Positions 597-20,000 are shown, counted from the stretch's first letter. The stretch is 20,000 nucleotides of DNA from an uncultured virus (IMG/VR IMGVR_UViG_2853092212_000004) (IMGVR_UViG_2853092212_000004); one strand, 5' to 3'. The notes: generated by a model from the letters alone, not told the origin. Numbers and translations: made by a program.

Positions 597-902
597 CTAC
601 TGTATAAAATAACAAAGCTTTTTTAATTTACCCTTGTCCAAATTTAATACATCTAAATGTGACTTAACTTGTTGAATTAACTGAGAAAAAACTTCAAATA
701 CAGTATTATGAATTACAGCTTGGCGTAAATTTTTCCAAAGGTGCTCAATTGCATTTAACTCAGAACAATATGGTGGAAGGTATAAAAAAGAAATATTTTC
801 TATACCTTTTAAGAAATCATCTATACCTTTAAAATGATGATATCTAGCATTGTCCGCAATCAATATAACCTTTTTATTTTGATAATTTTCAGAGACCGTA
901 TT
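597..902 (-). CDS. IS630 transposase, C-terminal DDE part (separate +1 frame)
   Basis: ILIADNARYH and LYLPPYCSELNAIEHLW are IS630 DDE_3 motifs. The frame is open back to about 902, overlapping the end of the upstream ORF. Confidence 0.9.
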   Translation of the reverse strand, partial: NTVSENYQNKKVILIADNARYHHFKGIDDFLKGIENISFLYLPPYCSELNAIEHLWKNLRQAVIHNTVFEVFSQLIQQVKSHLDVLNLDKGKLKKLCYFIQ

Positions 903-1647
903 TTAAAAAAGACTTAAAATTATCTGAATTTCCTTTATCAGAAATTTGATAGATAAGATCACCGGTCTCAGGGTTAGTAGCACCAAATACAACAGCTCTT
1001 TTTCTTGTGCCACCTGGTAAAGTTTTAACTATAGGCTGAACTCCGACTTTAGTCCAAACGGCAGTCGCAGACGGCTCTGATGTTACAATAGCTTCATCTT
1101 CATAGAGAATTACAGTATTTTCGTCTTTTGATATTATCAAATTCGATAGTTCTTCTCTAAAATTAGTTAAAGTTTCTTTATCAATTTTATTACTTAATCT
1201 TTTAGCTCTAGTTTTTGAGTAGTTAAGTCTAGAAAATATATTATAAGCTGTACCAAGTGAAATTTTTTTATTGAAGTTTAAACTTACCCAATTGACAAGA
1301 AGTTCACCAGTCCAATTATTATAATTGAGCCCGGAATTATAGGGTGATTCTTTTAAAATATTATCAACAATAGCGAGTTCATCGGATGTTAAAATTGTTT
1401 TCTTTGGAGGGTGTTCTAAATCTTTCAAGCCCTCTAATCCAAATTTATTATATCTATGAATAGTCGTTCTAATTGTAGCATCAGATTGTTTTAAAAGAAG
1501 AGAAATTTCAACACTAGATTTACCTTCAAATAAATGCAAGATAGTTAATAATCTAGTTTTAATTTTGGAATTTTTCTCACTTGTATATAACGCTTTTATA
1601 GTTTCATATGATGCATGCTTTGTATTAACAGTTAATCTTTTTCTCAT
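889..1647 (-). CDS. IS630 transposase, N-terminal part (HTH domains and first catalytic Asp, ILYEDE)
   Basis: AGGAGG RBS before ATG at 1647. Motifs: TIHRYNKFGLEGL, WT..L..W winged-HTH, YEDEA. Confidence 0.9.
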   Translation of the reverse strand: MRKRLTVNTKHASYETIKALYTSEKNSKIKTRLLTILHLFEGKSSVEISLLLKQSDATIRTTIHRYNKFGLEGLKDLEHPPKKTILTSDELAIVDNILKESPYNSGLNYNNWTGELLVNWVSLNFNKKISLGTAYNIFSRLNYSKTRAKRLSNKIDKETLTNFREELSNLIISKDENTVILYEDEAIVTSEPSATAVWTKVGVQPIVKTLPGGTRKRAVVFGATNPETGDLIYQISDKGNSDNFKSFLKYGL

Positions 1648-1730
1648 ATGGGCCTCCTGCTTAAATATTTGATATTTTAGTATGTCCATATATGAGAAAT
1701 TTAAATAGCAACCTGTAATTAAAATTTATA

Positions 1731-3022: not shown

Positions 3023-4765
3023 TTACCATTCATCTTTCTCTAGCCACTCATCTGTATCAGTTATATCTATAAATTCATGATATAGTGCTAATTTAAAGGC
3101 ACATAATAAAGCATCAACTGGGTCAATTCTTTTTGTTGTAGCATCTTTATCAATTTTTATAAGACCATTATTAGTTTTTATTACTGCATTACTCATTGCG
3201 TAATTTAATAATGGATTATTAGTATAGATAACATTTCCACAATAAATCTGCTCTCTAAATCCTTGTGTAGATTCATTCAAGGATTTATGACTTTGGAATA
3301 CTTCTTCAACTACATACCCCTCATTGCTTAAATCAATCATCATTTTACTTGCATTTGCTGGATCAAAACATAATGTTTCTATTCTCCAGTTATTTTTCTT
3401 ACAAGTTTCTAATACATAATCCATAACTTGTTGCTGATCTACTATTTCAGTATTAGTTATAGTTAAATAACCAGACCTTTCCCATGAATCATAAGGAACT
3501 TTATCTACTGCCATCCTTTCCCTTAGTTTTGTTCGATTAGGTATAAAAGAATGACTAAAACAAACGTATTTTACTATTTTCTTACCACTAGAATCTAACT
3601 CATCACTTAAAATAGGTATAATAAAAGCCACCGAAGTTAAATCTATCTTCGCTGACATATCAAATCCAACATATACTACCCTATTTCTTAGATCATAAGG
3701 TATCTCTTTTACTTCGCATTTCTTCCATTTAGCCATATTCATATAGCCATTTTCCTTGGCTTGCACCCATTTATTAAGGCATTTTGTTAGAAATGCAATC
3801 ATCTTTTCAGGAATTTCTTTGGCGATTTTATACTCTCCACGTATTTTTTTAATACCTGCATCATATGTCATTCTAATTGGATTCGCTTTTTTCCAACTTT
3901 CCTCATCCTCAATGTCATCATCTTCATCTATTTCACATATATCAATAAAATATTCTTCATTATCAATATCGACATTCGGATCTAGTATCTTCGAGCAATA
4001 AGTATACTCTTGAGTAAAACATGGGTAAGTTAAATCAACTCCAGCAGTAGTAATAATCATTAATAGACTTTCTTTAGTATTACCGCCTAACCCTAGGTCA
4101 TAAAACTCAGTTGTCTTGTGCTGATGATATTCATCTAATACCAGTAAAGCTGGATTGCTTCCATCCCCTTCCTTACCGTCTTGTTTGTTAAGCGGTTTTA
4201 AGCTGCTAGTAGTTTTTACATGCTGTATACTGTTCTTTGTTATTTTAAATTTGCCTCTTAGTGGAGACCCTTTTAACATATTCTTGCACTCATTGAATAT
4301 AACTTCTGATTGTTCTCTTTTTACTCCAGCACAATAACACTCATAAATTTCCTTATTCTTAGTGGCCCTCGTAGACATTTCATAGAGTGTTACTCCAGCT
4401 TCCATTTGTGACTTAGCATTTTTTCTAGCCACTTCTATAAAAGATTTTGTAAATCTCCTTAAATACGTTTCTTTATGCTCCCATCCATAAATCTGACATA
4501 AGCAAAACTTTTGCCACGTATTTAAAGTTATAAATTGACCTGCTAATACACCTTTGCTATGCTTTAGATATCCAAACCATTTAACAATCTTATTAGCTTC
4601 TTCTTCATTCCAATAATACTCAAATGGTGTACTTAATATATTTAATTCAGAATTTTTTATATCATTTAAAAATCTTAGACATGCCCATTTATGCTTTTGA
4701 CCACTTGGGATTATATTATTTAAACAATCATTAGAATATTTAATTAACTCTTCTTTAATAGTCAC
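3023..4765 (-). CDS. terL: Terminase large subunit
   Basis: Walker A-like VARKNAKS, Walker B LLVLDEYH, IITTAG, nuclease GFDMS..DLTS and RIDPVDAL. 580 aa. Confidence 0.96.
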   Translation of the reverse strand: MTIKEELIKYSNDCLNNIIPSGQKHKWACLRFLNDIKNSELNILSTPFEYYWNEEEANKIVKWFGYLKHSKGVLAGQFITLNTWQKFCLCQIYGWEHKETYLRRFTKSFIEVARKNAKSQMEAGVTLYEMSTRATKNKEIYECYCAGVKREQSEVIFNECKNMLKGSPLRGKFKITKNSIQHVKTTSSLKPLNKQDGKEGDGSNPALLVLDEYHQHKTTEFYDLGLGGNTKESLLMIITTAGVDLTYPCFTQEYTYCSKILDPNVDIDNEEYFIDICEIDEDDDIEDEESWKKANPIRMTYDAGIKKIRGEYKIAKEIPEKMIAFLTKCLNKWVQAKENGYMNMAKWKKCEVKEIPYDLRNRVVYVGFDMSAKIDLTSVAFIIPILSDELDSSGKKIVKYVCFSHSFIPNRTKLRERMAVDKVPYDSWERSGYLTITNTEIVDQQQVMDYVLETCKKNNWRIETLCFDPANASKMMIDLSNEGYVVEEVFQSHKSLNESTQGFREQIYCGNVIYTNNPLLNYAMSNAVIKTNNGLIKIDKDATTKRIDPVDALLCAFKLALYHEFIDITDTDEWLEKDEW

Positions 4766-6287: not shown

Positions 6288-6563
6288 GTGAAAACACCTC
6301 CTTTCTATTTAGACAATCATGATTTTAAATGCCTTGATTTTCGGTGTATTTCCCAACTTTTAAAACCTCACCTTTTTTTATATTTTTTATGGTCTACTGC
6401 AAATGTAGTTAAAGCATTGATAATACTAGCCTTATATCTATTTTTCTATTTATCAGTTAATAGGTAATAACATGGAGGATTACTGATATCTTTTTTAAGG
6501 TACATATATTAGTAATAATTTTTTAAAACTATATAAAATAAGTACCAGTTTATTTTTTACGCA

Positions 6564-7214
6564 TTATATATCTTCATCAGCAATTTTAGCTGCATCCTCT
6601 TTCATCTTTTCTTTAATACCTAGGTACCGTTTTGTTTCTTCTATTGATTGATGATTTAATGCAATTCTAACTTTTTCTAAATCTCCACCAGATCTCTCAT
6701 ATATTCTTGTAGCATAAGTTTTTCTAGGACTATGACCACTTATATGTTTTAGTCCAATAACTTTTCCAACCTCAGTAAGTATTAAGCTATATGATTTTTG
6801 TTCTATTGGTTCAATGCCACTTTTAGATTTATTTGAAGGAAAAGCATATTCTGCTCTTTTTTTACCTTTGATATAGTCTCTTAAATATTTCTCTAAATTG
6901 TTGCCAATATATACTTTTCGCTTTTCAGGCTTCTTTCGGTTAGGATATCTATTTAAATTAGCGATCCATTGATTGTATTGTTTTGATTCCTGAATTAAAA
7001 AATATCCATTTTCTAGCGCATCTTTTATTTCTCCTATTGTAAGTTGAACTAAATCTTGCATTCTATAGCCTGTAGCTCTAGCCAATATAAATAATATTAA
7101 ATTTCTTTCAGAATACCTTTTACTATATTCAATTAAAGCTTCCTTAAATCTCTCATACTTATTTTGTGGTATTGGTGCTGCTGTACCTTTTTCCCAATCT
7201 CTTACTCGTTCCAT
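6564..7214 (-). CDS. Short tyrosine recombinase (catalytic-domain-only, Xer/Int family)
   Basis: Catalytic residues TGYRMQDL (R), HSPRKTYA (HxxR), ALNH (H), TKRYLG (Y). At 216 aa it is too short for an arm-binding domain. Confidence 0.92.
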   Translation of the reverse strand: MERVRDWEKGTAAPIPQNKYERFKEALIEYSKRYSERNLILFILARATGYRMQDLVQLTIGEIKDALENGYFLIQESKQYNQWIANLNRYPNRKKPEKRKVYIGNNLEKYLRDYIKGKKRAEYAFPSNKSKSGIEPIEQKSYSLILTEVGKVIGLKHISGHSPRKTYATRIYERSGGDLEKVRIALNHQSIEETKRYLGIKEKMKEDAAKIADEDI

Positions 7215-7215
7215 C

Positions 7216-7404
7216 TTATTTCACCTGCTTTATCGCTCCTTTGTGTCTTGTATATGAACTGTGAGACATTAACTCTCTTATATCACGTTCACTTAATTTC
7301 TCGCTTTTCTTTTTATTATTCATTTCCATAAGCTTTTTATAATTTCCAATATCAGTTTCTCTCAAAACATCTTTTACCCTCATAAACTCCCTCCTAAAAT
7401 CCAA
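7216..7404 (-). CDS. Small basic hypothetical phage protein
   Basis: Tightly packed in the operon. An AGGAGGG RBS suggests the internal ATG (MRVKD) may be the true start. Confidence 0.65.
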   Translation of the reverse strand: MDFRREFMRVKDVLRETDIGNYKKLMEMNNKKKSEKLSERDIRELMSHSSYTRHKGAIKQVK

Positions 7405-7429
7405 TTAAAAAGAGCTGCTATATTATTTT

Positions 7430-7801
7430 CTAATATAACAACTCTTTATTTTCATTAACCAACCTTTTAGGTGTATCCCATGTAACAATTGGAGCAACTT
7501 CTCTGTTAATTACCAAATCTCCATCAGGTTTAGTTTTATATATTGATCTATTCTTTTTTATAAATGTACTATCACCCATGTATTTATTAGCTTCATAATT
7601 CGTAGCCTTTATACTTTCACGTCTTTGAACAACTGCTATATCATGTTTATGTTTCAAATGACTAAAGTTTCTTTGGATGTACTTTCTAACTGCTTCAACT
7701 TTTTTCCCTAACTTCTTAGCGATTTGATTTGCATCATATCCCTTTAAATACAATTCTTTTATTGGATTTTTATCCGCTTTAGCTTCCAAAAGCTCCACCA
7801 C
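7430..7801 (-). CDS. HTH DNA-binding protein (sigma region 4/LuxR-like HTH)
   Basis: LYLKGYDANQIAKKLGKKVEAVRKYIQR HTH. First gene after the putative late promoter. Confidence 0.7.
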   Translation of the reverse strand: MVELLEAKADKNPIKELYLKGYDANQIAKKLGKKVEAVRKYIQRNFSHLKHKHDIAVVQRRESIKATNYEANKYMGDSTFIKKNRSIYKTKPDGDLVINREVAPIVTWDTPKRLVNENKELLY

Positions 7802-7917
7802 CTTAAAAATGAATATAGTTCACCCAAACCATAAGACTGGACATTCCTTACTTTTATAAAAGTAAAATGAGAAATATGAACTTGTATTTTGTGTTTATTA
7901 CTTATTTATGTACATAT

Positions 7918-7985
7918 ATTATCATAAATTTTGGGACATTTGTGGGACATTTTTAAGACATTTTCGGGACACTTTTAGGACATTC
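7918..7985 (-). promoter_or_regulatory. Putative late promoter with five 11-bp-spaced direct repeats (GGACATT), likely late-activator binding sites
   Basis: GGACATT 7934-7940 and 7945-7951, AGACATT 7956-7962, GGACACT 7967-7973, GGACATT 7978-7984. TATGATAAT -10-like box on - at 7918-7926. Lies just downstream of the ArpU/RinA-like gene. Confidence 0.75.
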
Positions 7986-8013
7986 TATAAAAAAATAAGG
8001 ATGCATTTGCACC

Positions 8014-8343
8014 CTATAATACTATCTTTTTAGCAGCTCTATTTAAAATTCTATTTAACTGCCTTTCTGTTCTATCAATTTCATTAGCGGCTTTTTTCTT
8101 ATCTTTACAATCTATTAAAACTAATTTTATAACCTTATATTCTTTTTCAGGCAATAAATTTAACATATTATCAATTCTTTTATTTTCATTTTTTAATCTA
8201 TTAATTTCCTTAGTTAAATTTTCTATTCTTATGTCACTTTCATCTGATCCACTTAGTCTTAAGTTTTCAATTTCAATTTCTAAATTATCAATCTTACATT
8301 TTCTTTCTCTATAGATATTAAATATACTTTTAATTTCTGCCAT
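8014..8343 (-). CDS. Late transcriptional activator, ArpU/RinA-like (coiled coil plus C-terminal sigma-4-like HTH)
   Basis: IDNMLNLLPEKEYKVIKL...KKAANEIDRTERQLNRILNRAAKKI. Position at the end of the early operon, before the repeat array. Confidence 0.75.
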   Translation of the reverse strand: MAEIKSIFNIYRERKCKIDNLEIEIENLRLSGSDESDIRIENLTKEINRLKNENKRIDNMLNLLPEKEYKVIKLVLIDCKDKKKAANEIDRTERQLNRILNRAAKKIVL

Positions 8344-8384
8344 TTTTATCACCTATCCTTTATAAAATATGGTATAATTTAGAT

Positions 8385-8460
8385 AGGTTGATTAGAGAAC
8401 TAACGTTCCAAGGTCTATTCTCTAATTGAGGTAGGTGTTCGTGATGAACACCTTTATTTT
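8385..8460 (+). ncRNA. Candidate ~76-nt antisense small RNA
   Basis: Extended -10 TGGTATAAT 8370-8378; stem ATTAGAGAA/TTCTCTAAT; terminator AGGTGTTC-gtgat-GAACACCT followed by TTATTTT. Confidence 0.5.
8433..8460 (+). terminator. Intrinsic terminator-like hairpin (palindrome copy 1)
   Basis: 8-bp stem AGGTGTTC/GAACACCT plus T-rich tail. Confidence 0.6.
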
Positions 8461-8467
8461 AGTATTA

Positions 8468-8827
8468 CTAATGAAAAATAACCTTTCTAGTAATAATTCC
8501 TGCCTTGTTTAGATTATCATATATACTCTTTAATTCCTGCTTGTACCAATCCAAATAAGGATTTCTCAATGCACTATCTTCTCTATTATCACAACACCAC
8601 CAATCAGCAACTTTTAACACTTCAGTTCTATGCTTTAGTACAAGTGGTTCTGGATATTCAAATAATTTCTTTATAATATACACAAAAGTCTTTCCAGTAC
8701 ATCTCCCAGTCATCCTCATATCTATCAACATTGGCTCATTTAAAAGATACTTACGTTGCCATTTATAAAATTTTATATTTAAAGCTTTTTCTATTTCCTT
8801 TATTAGCTCTTCACTCATTATATCCAT
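8468..8827 (-). CDS. Hypothetical phage protein (GRCTGKT P-loop-like motif)
   Basis: AAAGGAG RBS; 119 aa ORF flanked by a 12-bp direct repeat. Confidence 0.75.
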   Translation of the reverse strand: MDIMSEELIKEIEKALNIKFYKWQRKYLLNEPMLIDMRMTGRCTGKTFVYIIKKLFEYPEPLVLKHRTEVLKVADWWCCDNREDSALRNPYLDWYKQELKSIYDNLNKAGIITRKVIFH

Positions 8828-8862
8828 AAATTAATTACTCCTTTCTACATACTGTTTTAGTA

Positions 8863-9429
8863 TTACGCATTAGTTTTCAAACTCTGTTTATAAGCTTTAT
8901 AGTAAAATAAATTGTCTACGCATATTCCTATAGTTATTAATATAAACGCTATATTTACTGGTATTGATACTACAAAACTAATTCCAAATCCTAATAAACT
9001 ACTAAAATTACTTATAATAGTCGAATTGTTATCAAATTGCTCTCTTATAGTTTCTGAATTATATCTCATTGCTCGTAACTTATTATTACCGCAAATAATA
9101 TTCTTACTAATTAATGCAAACAAAAATGTATCTAACAAATAATAAGCTACATTGCTTATTGAGCTTGTACATATTAATATTCCTATAATCGAGTATGCTA
9201 TACCTTCTAATAATAATAGCTGTCCATATATTCTATATAAGTTCTTATGCTTATTCCATATGATAGGGAATAACACTCCAGCTAAACACATTATTATTGA
9301 ATTAAAAGCTATCATCTTTTCTCCAACATCTTTAATTATAGTAAAATGTACTACTGGATAAGCTATTGAATAAAATAAATTACTCAGAAAATTTGCTACT
9401 AATAATTCATCTTTTATAAATTGTTTGAT
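8863..9429 (-). CDS. Multi-pass membrane protein (about 6 TM segments, half-MFS-like); probable ATC start, or ATG at 9315
   Basis: Frame is open 38 codons upstream of ATG 9315, to an ATC preceded by a GGGGGTGA RBS. Several hydrophobic segments. Confidence 0.7.
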   Translation of the reverse strand: MKQFIKDELLVANFLSNLFYSIAYPVVHFTIIKDVGEKMIAFNSIIMCLAGVLFPIIWNKHKNLYRIYGQLLLLEGIAYSIIGILICTSSISNVAYYLLDTFLFALISKNIICGNNKLRAMRYNSETIREQFDNNSTIISNFSSLLGFGISFVVSIPVNIAFILITIGICVDNLFYYKAYKQSLKTNA

Positions 9430-9472
9430 ATAATCACCCCCTAGTTAGTGCATTCTTTCTACACTTTGTGCA

Positions 9473-9781
9473 TTATTTACTCTTCATTAATTGTTCAATT
9501 CTTTTATTAATATCCTCCCATTTCTTACGTTTCTTTCTATCAGCTTCAATAATATCTATAATTTCTTTTCTATTTTTGGCTTTTGTTATATCTCCAGTAT
9601 CAATTTTATTTTTTTTCTCTAATCTATTTAATAATGCTGTAATTAAATAATGTCTAGCTGTTGAAATTCCACCATCTTTACTAATACAAAAATAAGCATT
9701 ATTGCTGATAATACAGTCAACTAATTCTTCTTTGGTCATTTCATTTAATAGTTTTCTAACCTCAATGTTTTTAGCACTCAT
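9473..9781 (-). CDS. Hypothetical phage protein
   Basis: AAGGAG RBS; flanked by an 18/20-bp direct repeat. Confidence 0.75.
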   Translation of the reverse strand: MSAKNIEVRKLLNEMTKEELVDCIISNNAYFCISKDGGISTARHYLITALLNRLEKKNKIDTGDITKAKNRKEIIDIIEADRKKRKKWEDINKRIEQLMKSK

Positions 9782-9822
9782 TCCTTTTACTCCTTAACTC
9801 TACACTTTACGCATTATTACAA

Positions 9823-10197
9823 TCAATTTTTATATTTATACCAATTATGATTTTTCTTTAATATCTCTAAATTTTTATTATGAATTGATACGTCTTTTTC
9901 AGTGGCTTGTCTTAATTCCTCTATATTTTCCTTAGTGATTGTTAATAGAATATCGTCACAATCTTCACTGACTGCATAACATATGAAATAATCATAATCT
10001 TCATAGAATTCATTTTTACCAAAGGTTTCATGCATTACTTTAAAGAATTTCTCCATTTGATCTAATTGAATAGGTCTTAATACCAAAAATTCATTTGAAT
10101 TTTCTTGTAGCTCAATAACTGCTATCTCTAATCCAGCTACTAAGTTCCAATCATCTATAGCATTTTCTTTTACTTTAGCAATTAATTGTTTTATCAT
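9823..10197 (-). CDS. Hypothetical phage protein (acidic)
   Basis: GGAGGGAG RBS; 124 aa ORF. Confidence 0.75.
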   Translation of the reverse strand: MIKQLIAKVKENAIDDWNLVAGLEIAVIELQENSNEFLVLRPIQLDQMEKFFKVMHETFGKNEFYEDYDYFICYAVSEDCDDILLTITKENIEELRQATEKDVSIHNKNLEILKKNHNWYKYKN

Positions 10198-10223: not shown

Positions 10224-10736
10224 TTATAGCTCTTTATAAAATTTATCACTTACTGATCTTCCAAGAATTAATTCTAGTCCTTGCTTACTTAGCCAAAAGT
10301 AAATACATTCATCATTATTTGGATGATTAGTACCTTTTTCAGCAAAGCCTTTTTCAACTAATTCATTCCAATCCTTATCTTTTTCCTGAGTAAAAAAATA
10401 ATTTCTATATGGTTTATTTTTTCTTCCTATACCAATACAATGTCTCATTATATCTAATTGATATTGAGTTACATATTCTAATAAATTTTTGACTTCCGTA
10501 TTTTCTCTATTGTATAAAGAGCAATATCCCTTTTGGCATCTATAAAATGCAACTGGTTCTTCATCTTCCTTAACTGGTTGCCTTATTCTTTTACACCTTG
10601 ACGCTGATAACCATTTATCAGCATATTTTTTATAACTTCCACCATCTAACATAGGCAGACCAGTTTTCTTGCATGATGCTGCTGTATAAAATCCATATCC
10701 GTTTGCTACTAGCAAATCTTTTATATTATTACTCAT
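10224..10736 (-). CDS. Hypothetical phage protein, possibly a two-domain fusion
   Basis: AAGGAG RBS before ATG 10736 (MSNNIK). C-terminal MRHCIG...YRNYF...WNELVEKGFA...F.LSKQG resembles a small wHTH-like phage domain. Confidence 0.75.
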   Translation of the reverse strand: MSNNIKDLLVANGYGFYTAASCKKTGLPMLDGGSYKKYADKWLSASRCKRIRQPVKEDEEPVAFYRCQKGYCSLYNRENTEVKNLLEYVTQYQLDIMRHCIGIGRKNKPYRNYFFTQEKDKDWNELVEKGFAEKGTNHPNNDECIYFWLSKQGLELILGRSVSDKFYKEL

Positions 10737-10753
10737 AATTGTTACTCCTTCCC

Positions 10754-10990
10754 CTATACTTCCTTTCGTTTGCACCTGGAACACAACCCCATATTTGCAT
10801 GATAATCTATACTAGAAATTGTAGCTCCGCATAAATAACATTCTTCATTATCTTCCTCGTCTTTATTAGATATATATCCCAATTCCTTGAGTTCTTTTTT
10901 TAAAGCTTCTCTTATATCCAGACCATGCTCTTCTATTCTTTTAATTGCTTTTGGAACTATTATGTCTACAATATCCTTAATAACTCCCAT
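10754..10990 (-). CDS. Small protein with C-terminal CxxC...CxxC zinc finger
   Basis: CYLCG...GLCSRCK. Translationally coupled (TAATG) to the upstream gene. Confidence 0.7.
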   Translation of the reverse strand: MGVIKDIVDIIVPKAIKRIEEHGLDIREALKKELKELGYISNKDEEDNEECYLCGATISSIDYHANMGLCSRCKRKEV

Positions 10991-11238
10991 TAAATCACCT
11001 TCTCATCAATTTTAGTAACATACCACATATCAAATATTTCTTTTTCTTCAATGCAGTAATATATTTGCCATGTTCCTATTACTGGATTAAAGAATTTTAA
11101 TCTATCTTTCTTCTCCACCTTCTCAACCTTATAACTTGCTCCAGTGATCTTACTTGTTATAATAATATCTTTATTGTCTATAACCTTTTCCCAGGCTGAC
11201 AAGAATGTAAATTCAACTGATCTATTTATTTCAATCAT
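10990..11238 (-). CDS. Hypothetical phage protein
   Basis: AGGTGA RBS; 82 aa. Confidence 0.7.
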   Translation of the reverse strand: MIEINRSVEFTFLSAWEKVIDNKDIIITSKITGASYKVEKVEKKDRLKFFNPVIGTWQIYYCIEEKEIFDMWYVTKIDEKVI

Positions 11239-11256
11239 ATTTCACCTATTTTTATC

Positions 11257-11285
11257 AAGGGGATCTCTCCCCTTATATTTTTTTT
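11257..11285 (+). terminator. Hairpin AAGGGGA-tctc-TCCCCTT with T-tract on +
   Basis: 7-bp GC-rich stem followed by ATATTTTTTTT. Confidence 0.5.
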
Positions 11286-11346
11286 GCAGTAACCGTAACA
11301 TTAGCAATTGTAATCCCTGCTGCTAACACTCCTAGTCCTGCAAGTA

Positions 11347-11502
11347 TTAACTTACTATATCTTTCAAATTCTTATAAAAGACTTGCTTTTCTTCTTCTGA
11401 TAAACCTTTAGTAAATTCTTCAAAGATCTCTTTTAAGTCCTTATCAGGCTTTTCAAAATACGCTTTAACAATCTTTTCTGTTTTCTCATTAAGTTTGTCC
11501 AT
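11347..11502 (-). CDS. Small hypothetical protein (51 aa; below the ORF-track cutoff)
   Basis: AGAGGTG RBS; MDKLNEKTEKIVKAYFEKPDKDLKEIFEEFTKGLSEEEKQVFYKNLKDIVS. Confidence 0.7.
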   Translation of the reverse strand: MDKLNEKTEKIVKAYFEKPDKDLKEIFEEFTKGLSEEEKQVFYKNLKDIVS

Positions 11503-11522
11503 CAATAACACCTCTTTTATAA

Positions 11523-12521
11523 TTACTTATCCCATCCTAGTAATCTCTTTTCTAATGAATCATAGTCATATTCTCTTGCCTCAAAGTTATTAAATCTCAG
11601 CGGTTTCACAATATTATCATTTTTAACTCTTGCCTTAGATTCATCTCTGCCTTTTGTTTGCCAGTTCTGTAATATCCCCGAAAGATAACCATAATTATTT
11701 ATTTTTCCACGTTTTACGCATTCAGTAGCTGCTTCCATCATCCAGTTAGCTCCAAAAACTTTAATATCTGCATCTATAAATTCTTTTAACTTGGCACTAC
11801 CTATAAAACCACATTTTTGAAAATGAGCATAAATATTAATCATATCTTTTTCATCGACTACAACAAACGACTCATTGTTATTGGTTATAGTGTTAGGATA
11901 TTGGTTATTGGATTTAGGATTATGGTTATAGGTTATTGGATTATGGTTTTGTCCACTTATCGGTAACGTATCGTCAAACTCTACTGTTTGAGCCATTCCT
12001 TCAAAATTTATTTTTTTATCAGACACGTTATACGTATCGTTATTTATTTCATTCTGATTGGTATACGTATCGTCTAACGACACGTTGTTTATTGCAGATA
12101 AATATTCCTCTATAAGTTGTTTAATAGATGCATTTTTTACATTAGTTACAATTTCTTTTATAAGGGTTTTATCAACTACATTCCCCAAGTCTTTTTTTAT
12201 ACAATCTATCATAGGCTTCCCACCCTTATTTAAATTGTATTTACCATAATTTTTAATGCATATTTCTTTAGTTTCGTCATTGTACACTACTAACTTATGA
12301 GTATTAATAAACCTTGTCATAAGGCTATTTATAGACTCTATACTGTATCCTAAATCAAAAGCCATTTGTTTCTTCACTATTCTATAAATACCTATCATGT
12401 TAGTACAAGGATTAGTAAGAAGATATAAATAAAAATATTTATCCTCTGGTGTCATATCTTCCATTACTTTAGGATCATTCCAAAATTCTGTATAAACTAT
12501 TCTAAATGCCATAAATTTCAC
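11523..12521 (-). CDS. Phage replication initiator, DnaD/DnaB_2-domain protein
   Basis: N-terminal wHTH FRIVYTEFWND...EDKYFYLYLLTN; low-complexity linker; C-terminal DnaD-like NYGYLSGILQNW; tail FNNFEAREYDYDSLEKRLLGW. Confidence 0.88.
   Translation of the reverse strand: MKFMAFRIVYTEFWNDPKVMEDMTPEDKYFYLYLLTNPCTNMIGIYRIVKKQMAFDLGYSIESINSLMTRFINTHKLVVYNDETKEICIKNYGKYNLNKGGKPMIDCIKKDLGNVVDKTLIKEIVTNVKNASIKQLIEEYLSAINNVSLDDTYTNQNEINNDTYNVSDKKINFEGMAQTVEFDDTLPISGQNHNPITYNHNPKSNNQYPNTITNNNESFVVVDEKDMINIYAHFQKCGFIGSAKLKEFIDADIKVFGANWMMEAATECVKRGKINNYGYLSGILQNWQTKGRDESKARVKNDNIVKPLRFNNFEAREYDYDSLEKRLLGWDK
11878..12086. repeat. Putative phage replication origin inside the initiator gene: 7-bp tandem array plus ACGTATCGT iterons
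   Basis: About ten degenerate heptamers (TTATTGG/TTATGGT/TATAGGT-like) at 11878-11947. ACGTATCGT at 11966, 12032 and 12065. GACACGTT at 12022 and 12079. Confidence 0.65.
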
Positions 12522-14438: not shown

Positions 14439-14915
14439 TTAGTACCATTGTCTCCCCTCATGTGTTACGTGAAGCCAAACTTTACTCTTACCTTCTAAAA
14501 ATGCAAATCTTAAATATTCTTTTCTATAATGCTCTGTTTGAACTAAATCTTTATATTCTTTACGTACATACTTATGTAACTGTCTTTTCTTCCCATCAGC
14601 TTTAATTACATTGATTACATTACATACACTTACTACACATTCTTCATCATCTGGATCTTGTGCTACATGATCTATATCTTCAACATAATTAATTGCCTTT
14701 GGAGTAGTAATCATTCTTGCGTCTATACCCCTAGCATTAAAATAATTAACGATGAAATTCTTAAAAATCACTTTATTCTCTTCTGTTAAATCCTCGTACC
14801 CTTTAACTTGTAAAGCATCAATGCCATGACAATTTTTTAAATCCTCTAAGCAAGTGAGCTTATAATCATTTAATCCATTTTCTTGATATATTTTTTCAAC
14901 TTCGCTTCTCTTCAT
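14439..14915 (-). CDS. Hypothetical phage protein
   Basis: AAGGAG RBS before ATG 14915; 158 aa. Confidence 0.75.
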   Translation of the reverse strand: MKRSEVEKIYQENGLNDYKLTCLEDLKNCHGIDALQVKGYEDLTEENKVIFKNFIVNYFNARGIDARMITTPKAINYVEDIDHVAQDPDDEECVVSVCNVINVIKADGKKRQLHKYVRKEYKDLVQTEHYRKEYLRFAFLEGKSKVWLHVTHEGRQWY

Positions 14916-14993
14916 TTCTAACACTCCTTACACAATTTACACTTTGAATAATTCCCACAACAAAACCTAATTAAATGAACTTTTCTACTCTTT

Positions 14994-15036
14994 TTATCCA
15001 CAATTTTGCTACGCAATTTATGGCTATTGTGGATAA
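14994..15036. promoter_or_regulatory. Inverted pair of consensus DnaA boxes
   Basis: TTATCCACA 14994-15002 and TGTGGATAA 15028-15036, both intergenic. Confidence 0.6.
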
Positions 15037-15047
15037 AGTGAGGACAT

Positions 15048-15227
15048 TTAATTTTGCACATTTTTCTCTTTCCTTTCTTCTGCTAATTTTTCCATAATGC
15101 ATTTTGCTTCAATTTCAACTATTGGTGCGTAAAATTCTTTATCAGTCATGTCTAAAACTTCAATTATTTCTCGACTTAAGCATTTACCTGTTTTTCTATC
15201 GTAAGTACTTCTTAAAACTCCTACCAT
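15048..15227 (-). CDS. Small hypothetical protein (59 aa; below the ORF-track cutoff)
   Basis: GGGGGA RBS; MVGVLRSTYDRKTGKCLSREIIEVLDMTDKEFYAPIVEIEAKCIMEKLAEERKEKNVQN. Confidence 0.7.
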   Translation of the reverse strand: MVGVLRSTYDRKTGKCLSREIIEVLDMTDKEFYAPIVEIEAKCIMEKLAEERKEKNVQN

Positions 15228-18007: not shown

Positions 18008-18028
18008 TGGTGTTCGTGATGAACACCA
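18008..18028. repeat. Palindrome copy 2 (TGGTGTTC-gtgat-GAACACCA)
   Basis: 19-bp core identical to 8434-8452. Confidence 0.85.
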
Positions 18029-18485: not shown

Positions 18486-20000
18486 ATGAAAGCAGCTATA
18501 TACGCACGTTATTCATCAGATAATCAGAGAGAAGAAAGTATAGATGCCCAAATTAGAGCCATAAAGGAATTTGCAAGCCATAATAATATTCAAATAGTAA
18601 AAATATACACTGATGAAGCACGTTCTGCTACAACAGACGATAGACCTCAATTTTTACAAATGATAAAAGATTCAGAATTCAATATTTTTAATACTGTTAT
18701 AGTTCATAAATTAGACAGATTTTCTCGTAATAGGTATGATAGCGCTTTTTACAAAAAGAAACTTAAGGATAATCATGTAAAATTAATTTCCGTATTAGAA
18801 CATTTAGATGATTCACCTGAAAGTATAATACTCGAATCAGTTCTTGAAGGTATGGCTGAATACTATTCAATTAATCTTAGTCGTGAAGTCATGAAAGGGA
18901 TGAAAGAGACTGCTCTACAATGTAAACATACTGGTGGAACTCCACCCTTAGGTTATGATGTTAATCCAGATAAAACTTATTGTATAAATGAGAAAGAATC
19001 TAATGCTATAAGACTAATATTCCAAATGTATGCATCTGGCACTGGATATACTCCTATTATTGATAAATTAAATGATTTAGGCTATAAGTCTAAAACAGGT
19101 AAAAGCTTTGGCAAGAATAGCTTATATGGAATATTGACTAATGAAAAATATAGAGGAGTTTATATTTTTAATAAATCATCAAAAAAAATTAATGGCAAGA
19201 GAAATTCACATAAAATTAAATCGGAAGATGAAATAATAAAAATCGAAGGTGGTATGCCTGCAATTATATCAGAAGATCTATGGAAAAGAGTGAAGATTAA
19301 AATGGACAGTAATAAAATTAATAAAGGTGCTAATACTGCAAAAGCTATTTATCTTTTAAGTGGCCTTATCTATTGTGGAAAATGTGGTTCAGCCATGACT
19401 GGTAATAGAAGATATGCTGGAAGAAATAAGAGCCTATATGAAACTTATGAATGTTCTAATAGAAAAAGAACAAAACAATGTGATATGAAAGCTATAAATA
19501 AAGATTATGTTGAACAAGTGGTTATTGATGACCTATATAATAATATATTTTCAGATTCAGCTATAGAAAATATAGTGCCTGATATTTTTGCATTTATAAG
19601 CGAACAAAATAAAATAATTAACGAAGATATTAAAATTTATAAAAAAGAATTAGCTGATATTCAAACCAAAATTGATAATATGCTAGACGCTATTGCAAAT
19701 GGTTTTTATAATTCATCAATGAAAGAAAAATCAGATCAGTTAGAAACTAGAAAAACAACATTGCTTATAAGAATAAATGAAGCTGAAAGAGAGGCAAAAT
19801 TAAATTCACCAACGGAAGATATGATAAAAAAATATTTAAAGAAAGATTCTGATATAAAACAAAAAAGTTTGGAAAACAAAAAGAAAGTAATCCAAACTCA
19901 TGTTCAAAAAATCACTGTCTATGAAGACAGAATCACAACTGACACAATTGTGAGCCTTATTGGTGGAGGCGACGGGTGTCGAACCCGTGTCCGAAAGTAG
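18486..20000 (+). CDS. Large serine recombinase (phage integrase)
   Basis: AAIYARYSSDNQ (catalytic Ser), VHKLDRFSRN, recombinase domain PPLGY, zinc ribbon LLSGLIYCGKCG...YEC...C, coiled coil. TAG at 19998-20000. Confidence 0.96.
   Translation: MKAAIYARYSSDNQREESIDAQIRAIKEFASHNNIQIVKIYTDEARSATTDDRPQFLQMIKDSEFNIFNTVIVHKLDRFSRNRYDSAFYKKKLKDNHVKLISVLEHLDDSPESIILESVLEGMAEYYSINLSREVMKGMKETALQCKHTGGTPPLGYDVNPDKTYCINEKESNAIRLIFQMYASGTGYTPIIDKLNDLGYKSKTGKSFGKNSLYGILTNEKYRGVYIFNKSSKKINGKRNSHKIKSEDEIIKIEGGMPAIISEDLWKRVKIKMDSNKINKGANTAKAIYLLSGLIYCGKCGSAMTGNRRYAGRNKSLYETYECSNRKRTKQCDMKAINKDYVEQVVIDDLYNNIFSDSAIENIVPDIFAFISEQNKIINEDIKIYKKELADIQTKIDNMLDAIANGFYNSSMKEKSDQLETRKTTLLIRINEAEREAKLNSPTEDMIKKYLKKDSDIKQKSLENKKKVIQTHVQKITVYEDRITTDTIVSLIGGGDGCRTRVRK
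19961..20000 (-). ncRNA. ssrA: tmRNA 3' end (tRNA-like domain); prophage attachment site
   Basis: Minus strand reads CTTTCGGAC-ACGGG-TTCGACA-CCCGT-CGCCTCC-A-CCA: T-arm, acceptor strand with U70 (Ala G3:U70 identity) and encoded CCA. TTCGGAC before the T-stem is typical of tmRNA rather than tRNA-Ala. Confidence 0.85.

Follow-up and report, generated by a model that had tools for sequence, protein, structure and literature searches.

Whether the joints of mosaic phage genomes are special, conserved linker sequences or the product of random illegitimate recombination followed by selection is an open question, and the early region of the uncultured virus IMGVR_UViG_2853092212_000004 raises it directly. 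The window that we analysed, a stretch of 20,000 nucleotides (nt), is the right half of a 36.8-kb provirus record (29% G+C) whose closest named relatives are prophages in assemblies titled Candidatus Clostridium helianthi and Clostridium puniceum. In a variable stretch on its minus strand, small genes that we call C1, C2 and C3 lie behind a conserved gene A, and the motif TAATGCGTAA recurs at the ends of genes. Is this motif a recombination site, an expression signal, a chance resemblance, or part of a joint along which genes are exchanged? A preliminary description took the stretch for an integron-like array of gene cassettes, shuffled at the motif by a 216-residue tyrosine recombinase encoded nearby, an interpretation that is partly supported by the present data. 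The explanation that we favour, with a probability of about 0.6, is that each motif copy is the portion nearest the stop codon of a conserved intergenic 'linker' sequence, and that these linkers mediate exchange precise to the open reading frame (ORF) by short-homology recombination.

Two observations carry this reading: the boxes that contain the motif recur after unrelated genes, and breakpoints of homology fall on them. The units of the variable stretch read box, ribosome-binding site (RBS), ORF, stop codon, box. All motif and repeat coordinates given in the preliminary description proved correct (Table 1), as did its statement that the units have no evident promoter of their own, no strong promoter-like site being found on the minus strand from 9900 to 8400. 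The motif does supply the stop codon at 9473, 8863 and 6564, as had been proposed, though not in one register: its first TAA is used at 9473 and 6564 and its last at 8863, and for the copy at 9807-9816 the stop is a TGA (9823-9825) 6 nt upstream of the motif. Such a motif, without fixed register to stop codons, points to a DNA or RNA signal and not to a coding constraint.

Breakpoints were mapped by blastn of the window against nine related loci, and against contigs of other samples (X4 and X5). Homology with seven relatives among the nine loci stops at 8455-8461, and homology with L002, L003, L011 and contig X4 begins exactly at 9799. Locus L007 has breakpoints at 8867 and 9458, with C2 replaced by 3,053 nt. 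In contig X4, position 8869 is joined to 9799 with 617 other letters between, C1 and C2 being replaced together; in contig X5, 8864 is joined to 9455 with 918 letters between and C2 is replaced, and a second X5 contig diverges at 9799. As these positions (8455-8461, 8864-8869, 9455-9458 and 9799) are box edges, the cassette-like layout holds, together with the earlier prediction that presence/absence breakpoints would lie at the motif. Downstream of junction box J1, at least five different sequences are found in different phages, and downstream of J2 there are three (in the window, L007 and G004). The leader CTAACTAGGGGGTGA, with a TGTAGA box before it, precedes C2, a 252-residue ORF in G009/G005 and a 325-residue ORF in G001; blastp among these three ORFs gives a best E-value of 2.7 or worse, and they were apparently replaced exactly, linker to linker. 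A C1 homologue in L020/G002 (75% identity) has another gene upstream of it, yet is flanked by TGTAGA boxes on either side. C3 is found behind three different upstream genes; ACTAAAACAG...TGTAGAAAGGAG precedes it in each case, and each of these genes contributes a 5' half of its own version. In G013/L008, C3 is missing, and the upstream gene of G012 leads straight into ACTAA and the hairpin. On these comparative sequence data, we regard the junction repeats as confirmed to be real. Exact and degenerate searches of viral contigs with a 20-mer and a 19-mer junction located it after gene A only in the same small phage group; three of the seven loci from the junction search (L014, L016 and L018) were rejected as chance matches in unrelated, coding-like stretches. 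A screen of collinear blastn high-scoring segment pairs for clean indels gave eight raw events, of which four distinct ones were printed, one of them an insertion sequence (IS), and none lay in the variable stretch, where the flanks are too short for the method.

Compared across phages, the sequence TAATGCRYAA emerges as a stop codon plus the 5' half of a wider, degenerate junction box. Two forms recur after stops in 16 phage sequences: one consists of the stop, T, 0-6 nt and YRCRCAAT-ACTAA, the other of the stop, a TGCRYAA-like element, 1-3 nt and TGTAGA. In this set (484,684 nt, with junctions making up 3.6% of bases), CAATACTA lies in sense-strand junctions at 15 of its 37 unique occurrences and TGTAGA at 29 of 270; for the reversed-word controls, the counts are 0 of 21 (ATCATAAC), 0 of 130 (AATCATA) and 3 of 298 (AGATGT). 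The anchored lists comprise 38 and 29 unique junction sequences, some of them weak matches and with related junctions partly collapsed. Boxes follow many unrelated small early genes in both related and unrelated low-GC phage records, and each genome has its full boxes in the early variable stretch. For YCRCAATACTAA, the counts in two host genomes of 6.1 Mb are 4 and 5, against 5 and 3 for the reversed control; no fewer than four of the nine matches follow stop codons, one of these being the related prophage itself. A search of viral contigs with the 14-mer CTACGCAATACTAA returned more than 105 loci, mostly random matches; among the 80 looked at, 26 matches were in loci with a GC content below 0.36, and five were judged to be stop-codon junctions (L039, L058, L074, L090 and L095).

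One record, L150 (G014), shows at 10470-12000 four consecutive junctions of tiny ORFs (50-61 residues) with a repeat of their own, stop-GTCAGAAAGG(G/A)TGTAG(G/A)AA-start, in which TGTAG lies between the RBS and the start codon. These four near-identical TGTAGG junctions are a separate kind of repeat and are not to be pooled with J1.

Could AT-rich stop contexts that resemble each other by chance, combined with ordinary mosaic breakpoints at gene boundaries, produce the same picture? Considered as a single word, TAATGCGTAA is expected 0.04 times, and three copies were reached in 0 of 200 shuffles. The word was chosen after it had been seen, so a look-elsewhere correction was applied, after which the window statistics are unremarkable. 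For example, 121 different 10-mers are present at least three times in the window, and 60% of 300 dinucleotide shuffles contain at least one 10-mer with an expectation of at most 0.05 that is seen at least three times; the mean number of such improbable triples is 1.06 per shuffle, against two overlapping ones in the real window. Pairs of 20-mers with at most two mismatches number 4, against a mean of 4.45 (maximum 9) in 40 shuffles. The two TAA triplets of the motif also bar it from two of three coding frames, which biases it toward gene ends. In the whole 36.8-kb record there are three exact copies of TAATGCGTAA, all inside the window. Matches with at most two mismatches number 42 where 29.8 are expected. 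The chance explanation is nevertheless already contradicted by boxes that turn up behind unrelated genes in many different records while the reversed words score close to zero, by the same breakpoints appearing again in independent samples, and by the shared leader, linkers of 15 to 45 nt being common to unrelated ORFs. We therefore consider it the least probable of the explanations discussed here.

How would linkers bring about exchange? In the mechanism that we propose, they would lie between the small accessory genes, themselves without promoters, of the early operon in this group of Clostridium prophages, each full linker running from a stop codon to the next start codon (20-45 nt) and combining a TGCRYAA-like box, TACTAA or TGTAGA, and a strong RBS. 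Because the linkers are alike and co-oriented, recombination between them would replace an ORF precisely, whether the partners are two phages or a phage and a resident prophage. Recombination between non-allelic linkers would add or remove a single-gene module and leave a direct repeat around it, as at C1 and C3. We infer that exchange is driven by short homology, through general recombination of host or phage or through template switching, and not by a dedicated site-specific enzyme. Synteny breakpoints were found at 37 of 41 box junctions and at 107 of 149 other junctions with spacers of at least 8 nt (Fisher p 0.014), in a crude test whose junctions are not independent and which uses simple gene calls.

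Several points weigh against this explanation. Judged from the window by itself, the repeats do not exceed chance and could have arisen by it. Breakpoints at 7925/8328, where an allele of a sigma-like gene is swapped, and at 10754/10760 lie off the boxes, and in the same crude test most junctions without a box (the 107 of 149) are synteny breakpoints as well. A conserved box stretches apparent homology to its edges, so the same breakpoints are expected if boxes are kept for expression and crossovers take place at any point in their vicinity. The gene calls come from a simple longest-ORF procedure, related junctions are only partly de-duplicated, and exchange is read from end products only, all 23 sequencing runs being contigs. 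For RecA-type recombination, a linker length of 13-45 nt at 70-100% identity is short, and no single-strand annealing protein was found in the window, the other 16.8 kb of the record not having been searched.

Integrons consist of promoterless single ORFs, each with an attC site at its 3' end, in a co-oriented array served by the integrase IntI. The variable stretch resembles them in its promoterless, co-oriented ORFs with a site at each 3' end and in an array content that differs among relatives, and an integron-like system in which the 216-residue recombinase, perhaps with the protein of the adjacent 62-residue ORF, moves single-gene cassettes at the boxes would account for this layout, for breakpoints on the sites and for the direct repeats that bracket C1 and C3. 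The catalytic R, HxxR, H and Y of the recombinase are in place and align with those of XerH, and half a box stands at the stop codon of the recombinase gene itself. The cassette layout of the preliminary description thus stands; its integron analogy does not. No attI/Pc arrangement was identified, and the boxes are asymmetric, without dyad symmetry or paired binding arms. They have no attC-type imperfect palindrome or fold, as the preliminary description had itself observed: J1, J2, box B and the half box at the recombinase stop gave fold z-scores of -0.33, -0.76, +0.15 and +0.44, no better than shuffles. The recombinase is not an IntI-type integrase, scoring 55.2 bits against a cut-off of 220 with the NCBIfam XerA/integron-integrase model and falling far below the cut-offs of all Xer and integron-integrase models, and it is without an N-terminal core-binding domain.

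The distribution of the recombinase likewise speaks against a role at the boxes. Its gene lies 1.25 kb downstream of the array, with three other genes between, and is present at 83-100% identity in eight IMG/VR loci and two genome contigs; a search of genome contigs with the recombinase returned two close relatives and one spurious match. Orthologues of about 25% to 73% identity (by blastp; somewhat higher by genome search) occupy the same place at the early/late border, usually behind the 62-residue ORF and just before the late genes, and this constant place and partner mark the recombinase as a core gene. The motif had been said to cap the recombinase gene, but it is only the 5' half of a box that does so: it is kept in seven of eight close relatives, gives way to TAATCCGTAA in L004/L030, and is missing from the orthologues at 73%, 42% and 25% identity (G003, G001 and G002). 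The motif had also been expected to occur together with the recombinase, and its presence in phages lacking the enzyme had been named as evidence to the contrary. This is what we found, as the box-bearing G014 and G017 have no PF00589 match in records that are incomplete (71% and 84%). G014, an ERF/SSB/RecU phage with an SPP1-type portal, contains the early/late interval wholly inside its record. Conversely, G011 encodes the recombinase and has a box at 0 of 25 junctions (20 kb examined). Boxes thus occur without any tyrosine recombinase match, and an integron-like system is, in our judgement, very improbable indeed.

The recombinase, which had been described as having no obvious role, probably has another job. 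As ParA and ParB are encoded in the same operon, dimer resolution is an ordinary candidate, and the most likely function would be to resolve dimers of a ParA/ParB-partitioned replicon; in G001 the recombinase is present and no ParA/ParB match was found in the 16 kb examined. No dif-like site was identified in the phage, no search aimed at one having been made. The excerpted text of PMC8026635 states that Xer-like recombinases of plasmid-type prophages are believed to resolve dimers, and lists phiCD38-2 with ParA/ParB, an Xer-like recombinase and a serine recombinase. The phage studied here is like that type in being a temperate Clostridium phage with ParA/ParB, one Xer-like tyrosine recombinase and a serine recombinase (PMC8026635), and differs in that its tyrosine recombinase is a protein of 216 residues with the catalytic domain only, far under the Xer cut-offs, and in that the phage appears to be integrated. 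In G003 the recombinase allele is 73% identical, and the flanks (the sigma-like gene at 7430-7801, the 62-residue ORF, a TerS-like gene and an HNH gene) are 95-99% identical; an allele that differs between near-identical flanks suggests that the recombinase gene was itself exchanged as a unit.

A broader version of the enzymatic explanation would have a trans-acting factor recognise the boxes. In this lineage the factor could be the catalytic-domain-only recombinase with its 62-residue partner; G014 and similar phages would rely on a different enzyme. Accessory genes would be excised one at a time and reinserted at a constant point behind TGTAGA or TACTAA, amounting to an undescribed, sequence-directed system of gene-cassette exchange in the early regions of Clostridium phages. 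We think this quite improbable; on the evidence so far, there is no new recombination machinery.

A possible, if doubtful, alternative is that the boxes are cis-acting expression signals, conserved for their action on the early transcript or the DNA. They could be signals tied to the stop codon, places where RNA is processed, elements that couple translation or sites for a regulator to bind; the start-associated sequences (SAS) of cluster K mycobacteriophages, or stoperators, would be comparable. Breakpoints would then coincide with boxes only because these are the sole conserved letters between genes, an idea that is compatible with the linker reading. The same box stands beside gene families unique to the unrelated G014, which function explains more easily than descent, and boxes beside unrelated genes in an unrelated phage favour some direct function. 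The boxes also all point the same way, keep to the early non-structural region and are seldom found in the host, as is described for SAS in the relevant part of PMC3203893. Some TGTAGA boxes overlap an extended Shine-Dalgarno sequence complementary to the 16S 3' end of the hosts; at many junctions, TGTAGA is apart from the RBS. Against a signal speak the absence of any fold and of any Rfam family at E of at most 1 for the boxes, a box-to-RBS distance that varies from about 0 to 20 nt, and the early promoter region, where no motif copy (up to two mismatches) exceeds chance level. The copies are, moreover, degenerate (5' halves TGCGTAA, CGCAAT, CACAAT and GTCAT), more so than the stoperators described in the sections of PMC3029335 that deal with them. 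TACTAA-type boxes are anchored 0-7 nt after stop codons, and four box junctions (C3 in the window, G006/L001, L008 and G008) lead into a hairpin and no gene, which together argue against a role in starting the next gene. Two specific candidates were rejected. TACTAA as the -10 element of a sporulation-type or phage sigma factor would put the box 0-20 nt before the RBS and the presumed -35 in unrelated coding sequence, and a hairpin of the box with a downstream complement, seen at one host-genome copy (L157), was not general by the fold test.

The linker concept itself has precedents, namely the old idea of boundary sequences, which belongs to the modular theory of phage evolution (as cited in PMC3029335), and the cassettes of promoter-early stem-loop (PeSL) elements (PMC2839356), the best-documented modern version of that idea, as far as the excerpts of these two papers describe them. 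Boundary sequences are short conserved sequences at mosaic junctions where general recombination yields gene-precise exchange, and mycobacteriophage Island3 gene 68 is a similar single-gene insertion flanked by a repeat (both PMC3029335, in part). At J1, at the 15-nt leader and at the C1 and C3 insertions we likewise find a short conserved sequence in both junction partners with one flank unrelated; the difference is that we are dealing with a family of 13-45-nt boxes that has a recognisable consensus, occupies consecutive junctions and is common to an unrelated phage type. In T4-type phages, PeSLs are intergenic elements that recur on both sides of non-essential ORFs within a hyperplastic region; the insertions, deletions and replacements that distinguish close relatives map to them, and mini-circles have been shown (PMC2839356, excerpted text). 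PeSLs contain a sigma-70-type promoter and a terminator stem-loop according to the same excerpt, whereas the boxes, which lie within one operon, have neither: no strong promoter-like site or fold was found at them, the only hairpin being that at 8433-8453. SAS and extended SAS (ESAS) of cluster K mycobacteriophages are asymmetric sequences of about 13 bp in one orientation, located in the non-structural half beside varied gene families; the host genome contains almost none, and no function is known for them (PMC3203893, excerpted text). The boxes share their asymmetry, orientation, region and rarity in the host. By the same account the RBS is part of the SAS, which are placed 3-7 bp ahead of the start codon; the boxes lack this fixed position, the TACTAA type being anchored to stops and sometimes without a gene after it. 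Stoperators of cluster A mycobacteriophages are, in the part of PMC3029335 devoted to them, asymmetric, short, intergenic and oriented with transcription, sometimes overlapping stop codons, and they number 24-34 near-identical 13-bp sites genome-wide that match the operator. Here there are 4-5 degenerate copies in 1.4 kb plus the half copy at 6557, and no match at the early promoter.

Table 1 Junction boxes, repeats and associated genes in the window.
Feature	Position	Strand	Remarks
TAATGCGTAA, exact copies	6557-6566, 8863-8872, 9807-9816	-	
TAATGCACAA	9466-9475	-	
18/20 direct repeat	9458-9477 and 9799-9818		
TTTTAGTATTAC	8457-8468 and 8855-8866		
Gene A	9823..10197	-	124 aa, no family match; conserved left anchor of the variable stretch
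Junction box J1, AATAATGCGTAAAGTGTAGA	9799..9818	-	3 nt past the gene A stop, upstream of the C1 RBS
C1	9473..9781	-	102 aa, no family match; single-gene module between J1 and J2
Junction box J2, AATAATGCACAAAGTGTAGA	9458..9477	-	Contains the C1 stop codon; identical to J1 at 18/20 positions
Leader CTAACTAGGGGGTGA (RBS)	9434..9448	-	Before C2; common to three unrelated downstream ORFs
C2	8863..9432	-	150 aa from ATG 9315, or 188 aa from in-frame ATC 9427-9429
Junction box B, TAATGCGTAATACTAAAA	8855..8872	-	Contains the C2 stop; TACTAA type
C3	8468..8827	-	119 aa, no family match; single-gene module between ATACTAAAA repeats
Junction box after C3, TAGTAATACTAAAA	8457..8470	-	Followed by the hairpin, no gene
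Palindromic hairpin AGGTGTTCGTGATGAACACCT	8433..8453	.	Right-hand border of the variable stretch
62-aa ORF	7216..7404	-	Stop TAA, one base, then recombinase ATG; conserved together with the recombinase
Tyrosine recombinase	6564..7214	-	216 aa, catalytic domain only; PF00589, residues 25-199, E 1.9e-18
Half box TAATGCGTAA, then A-rich sequence	6557..6566	-	At the tyrosine recombinase stop
Weak variant AATTATTCAAAGTGTA, then AATTGTGTAAGGAG	14938..14953	-	Upstream of gene 14439-14924

The early operon, on the minus strand, starts at a perfect TTGACA-17-TATAAT promoter (16113-16085) and encodes a regulator, ParA, ParB, a DnaD-like replication protein, small genes without a family match, two sigma-like regulators, the 62-residue ORF and the tyrosine recombinase, downstream of which are genes for a TerS-like protein, HNH, TerS, TerL and portal. 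Gene A, C1, C2 and C3 have no informative match in Pfam, PHROGs or NCBIfam, and PADLOC found no match among 10 proteins. Near the strong RBS of C2 there is no ATG, GTG or TTG; an ATC is in frame where the unrelated ORFs with the same leader have TTG, so that C2 either uses a rare start codon or had its start damaged by exchange. Many relatives, as well as contigs X2, X4 and X5, have in place of the sigma-like gene at 8014-8352 an allele that is 53-58% identical to it. Of the weak variant at 14938-14953, which the preliminary description had added to the motif copies, only AAAGTGTA and the RBS context are shared, and the rest of the box is not. The 11-mer TTTAGTATTAC occurs at 4073, 8458 and 8856, so that besides the pair contained in the TTTTAGTATTAC repeat there is a third copy, within the terminase gene.

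The hairpin at 8433-8453 folds with a z-score of -5.06, none of 200 shuffles being as good, and is kept in relatives. Located just upstream of the sigma-like gene, it ends the variable early stretch. A second copy of the palindrome GGTGTTC-N5-GAACACC (19-21 nt) is found at about 18008-18026, between the BRCT gene and the next lysogeny-module gene, and in the relatives L001, L004, L005 and L008 two copies flank a gene of 335-354 residues. On the minus strand the palindrome has no T-run after it, and it may thus be an operator or a bidirectional stop and not the terminator of the early operon.

At the right end of the window, the lysogeny module on the plus strand encodes an RstR-like repressor, ImmA, a BRCT protein and a large serine recombinase whose ORF is still open at the window end. 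The record end (about 19960-20000) looks on the minus strand, judging by general tRNA features, like the 3' portion of a tRNA gene; ARAGORN detected no complete tRNA anywhere in the window. A 12-nt sequence from this end is found at both ends of the 37.4-kb contig G004:C51, which contains a close relative, and is likely to be the att core. It is the large serine integrase, together with a record end beside a tRNA-like 3' end, that makes the phage appear integrated. Elsewhere, between late genes, an ORF with HTH_32 and DDE_3 transposase domains (gene 889-1689, minus strand, in a stretch of about 562-1730) is IS630-like by domain content. This stretch is missing from L002, L003 and L007, whose homology covers 1-561 and resumes at 1731, and looks like a recent IS insertion in the prophage. 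Finally, at about 14995-15035 (minus strand), 3' of ORF 15048-15227, an inverted repeat CCACAAT-N20-ATTGTGG that also contains TGCGTA is kept in six relatives or more; it may be a regulator site or form a small hairpin.

For the question of how mosaic joints arise, this locus offers a compact case: four consecutive junctions, at least six alternative contents between the same two anchors, and ORF replacement that is exact from start to stop, with a box consensus common to this group and an unrelated phage type. The linker model is directly testable in this solvent-producing, non-pathogenic Clostridium group, and the boxes provide a handle with which to find exchangeable accessory genes, as candidate defence or counter-defence genes, in Clostridium prophages.

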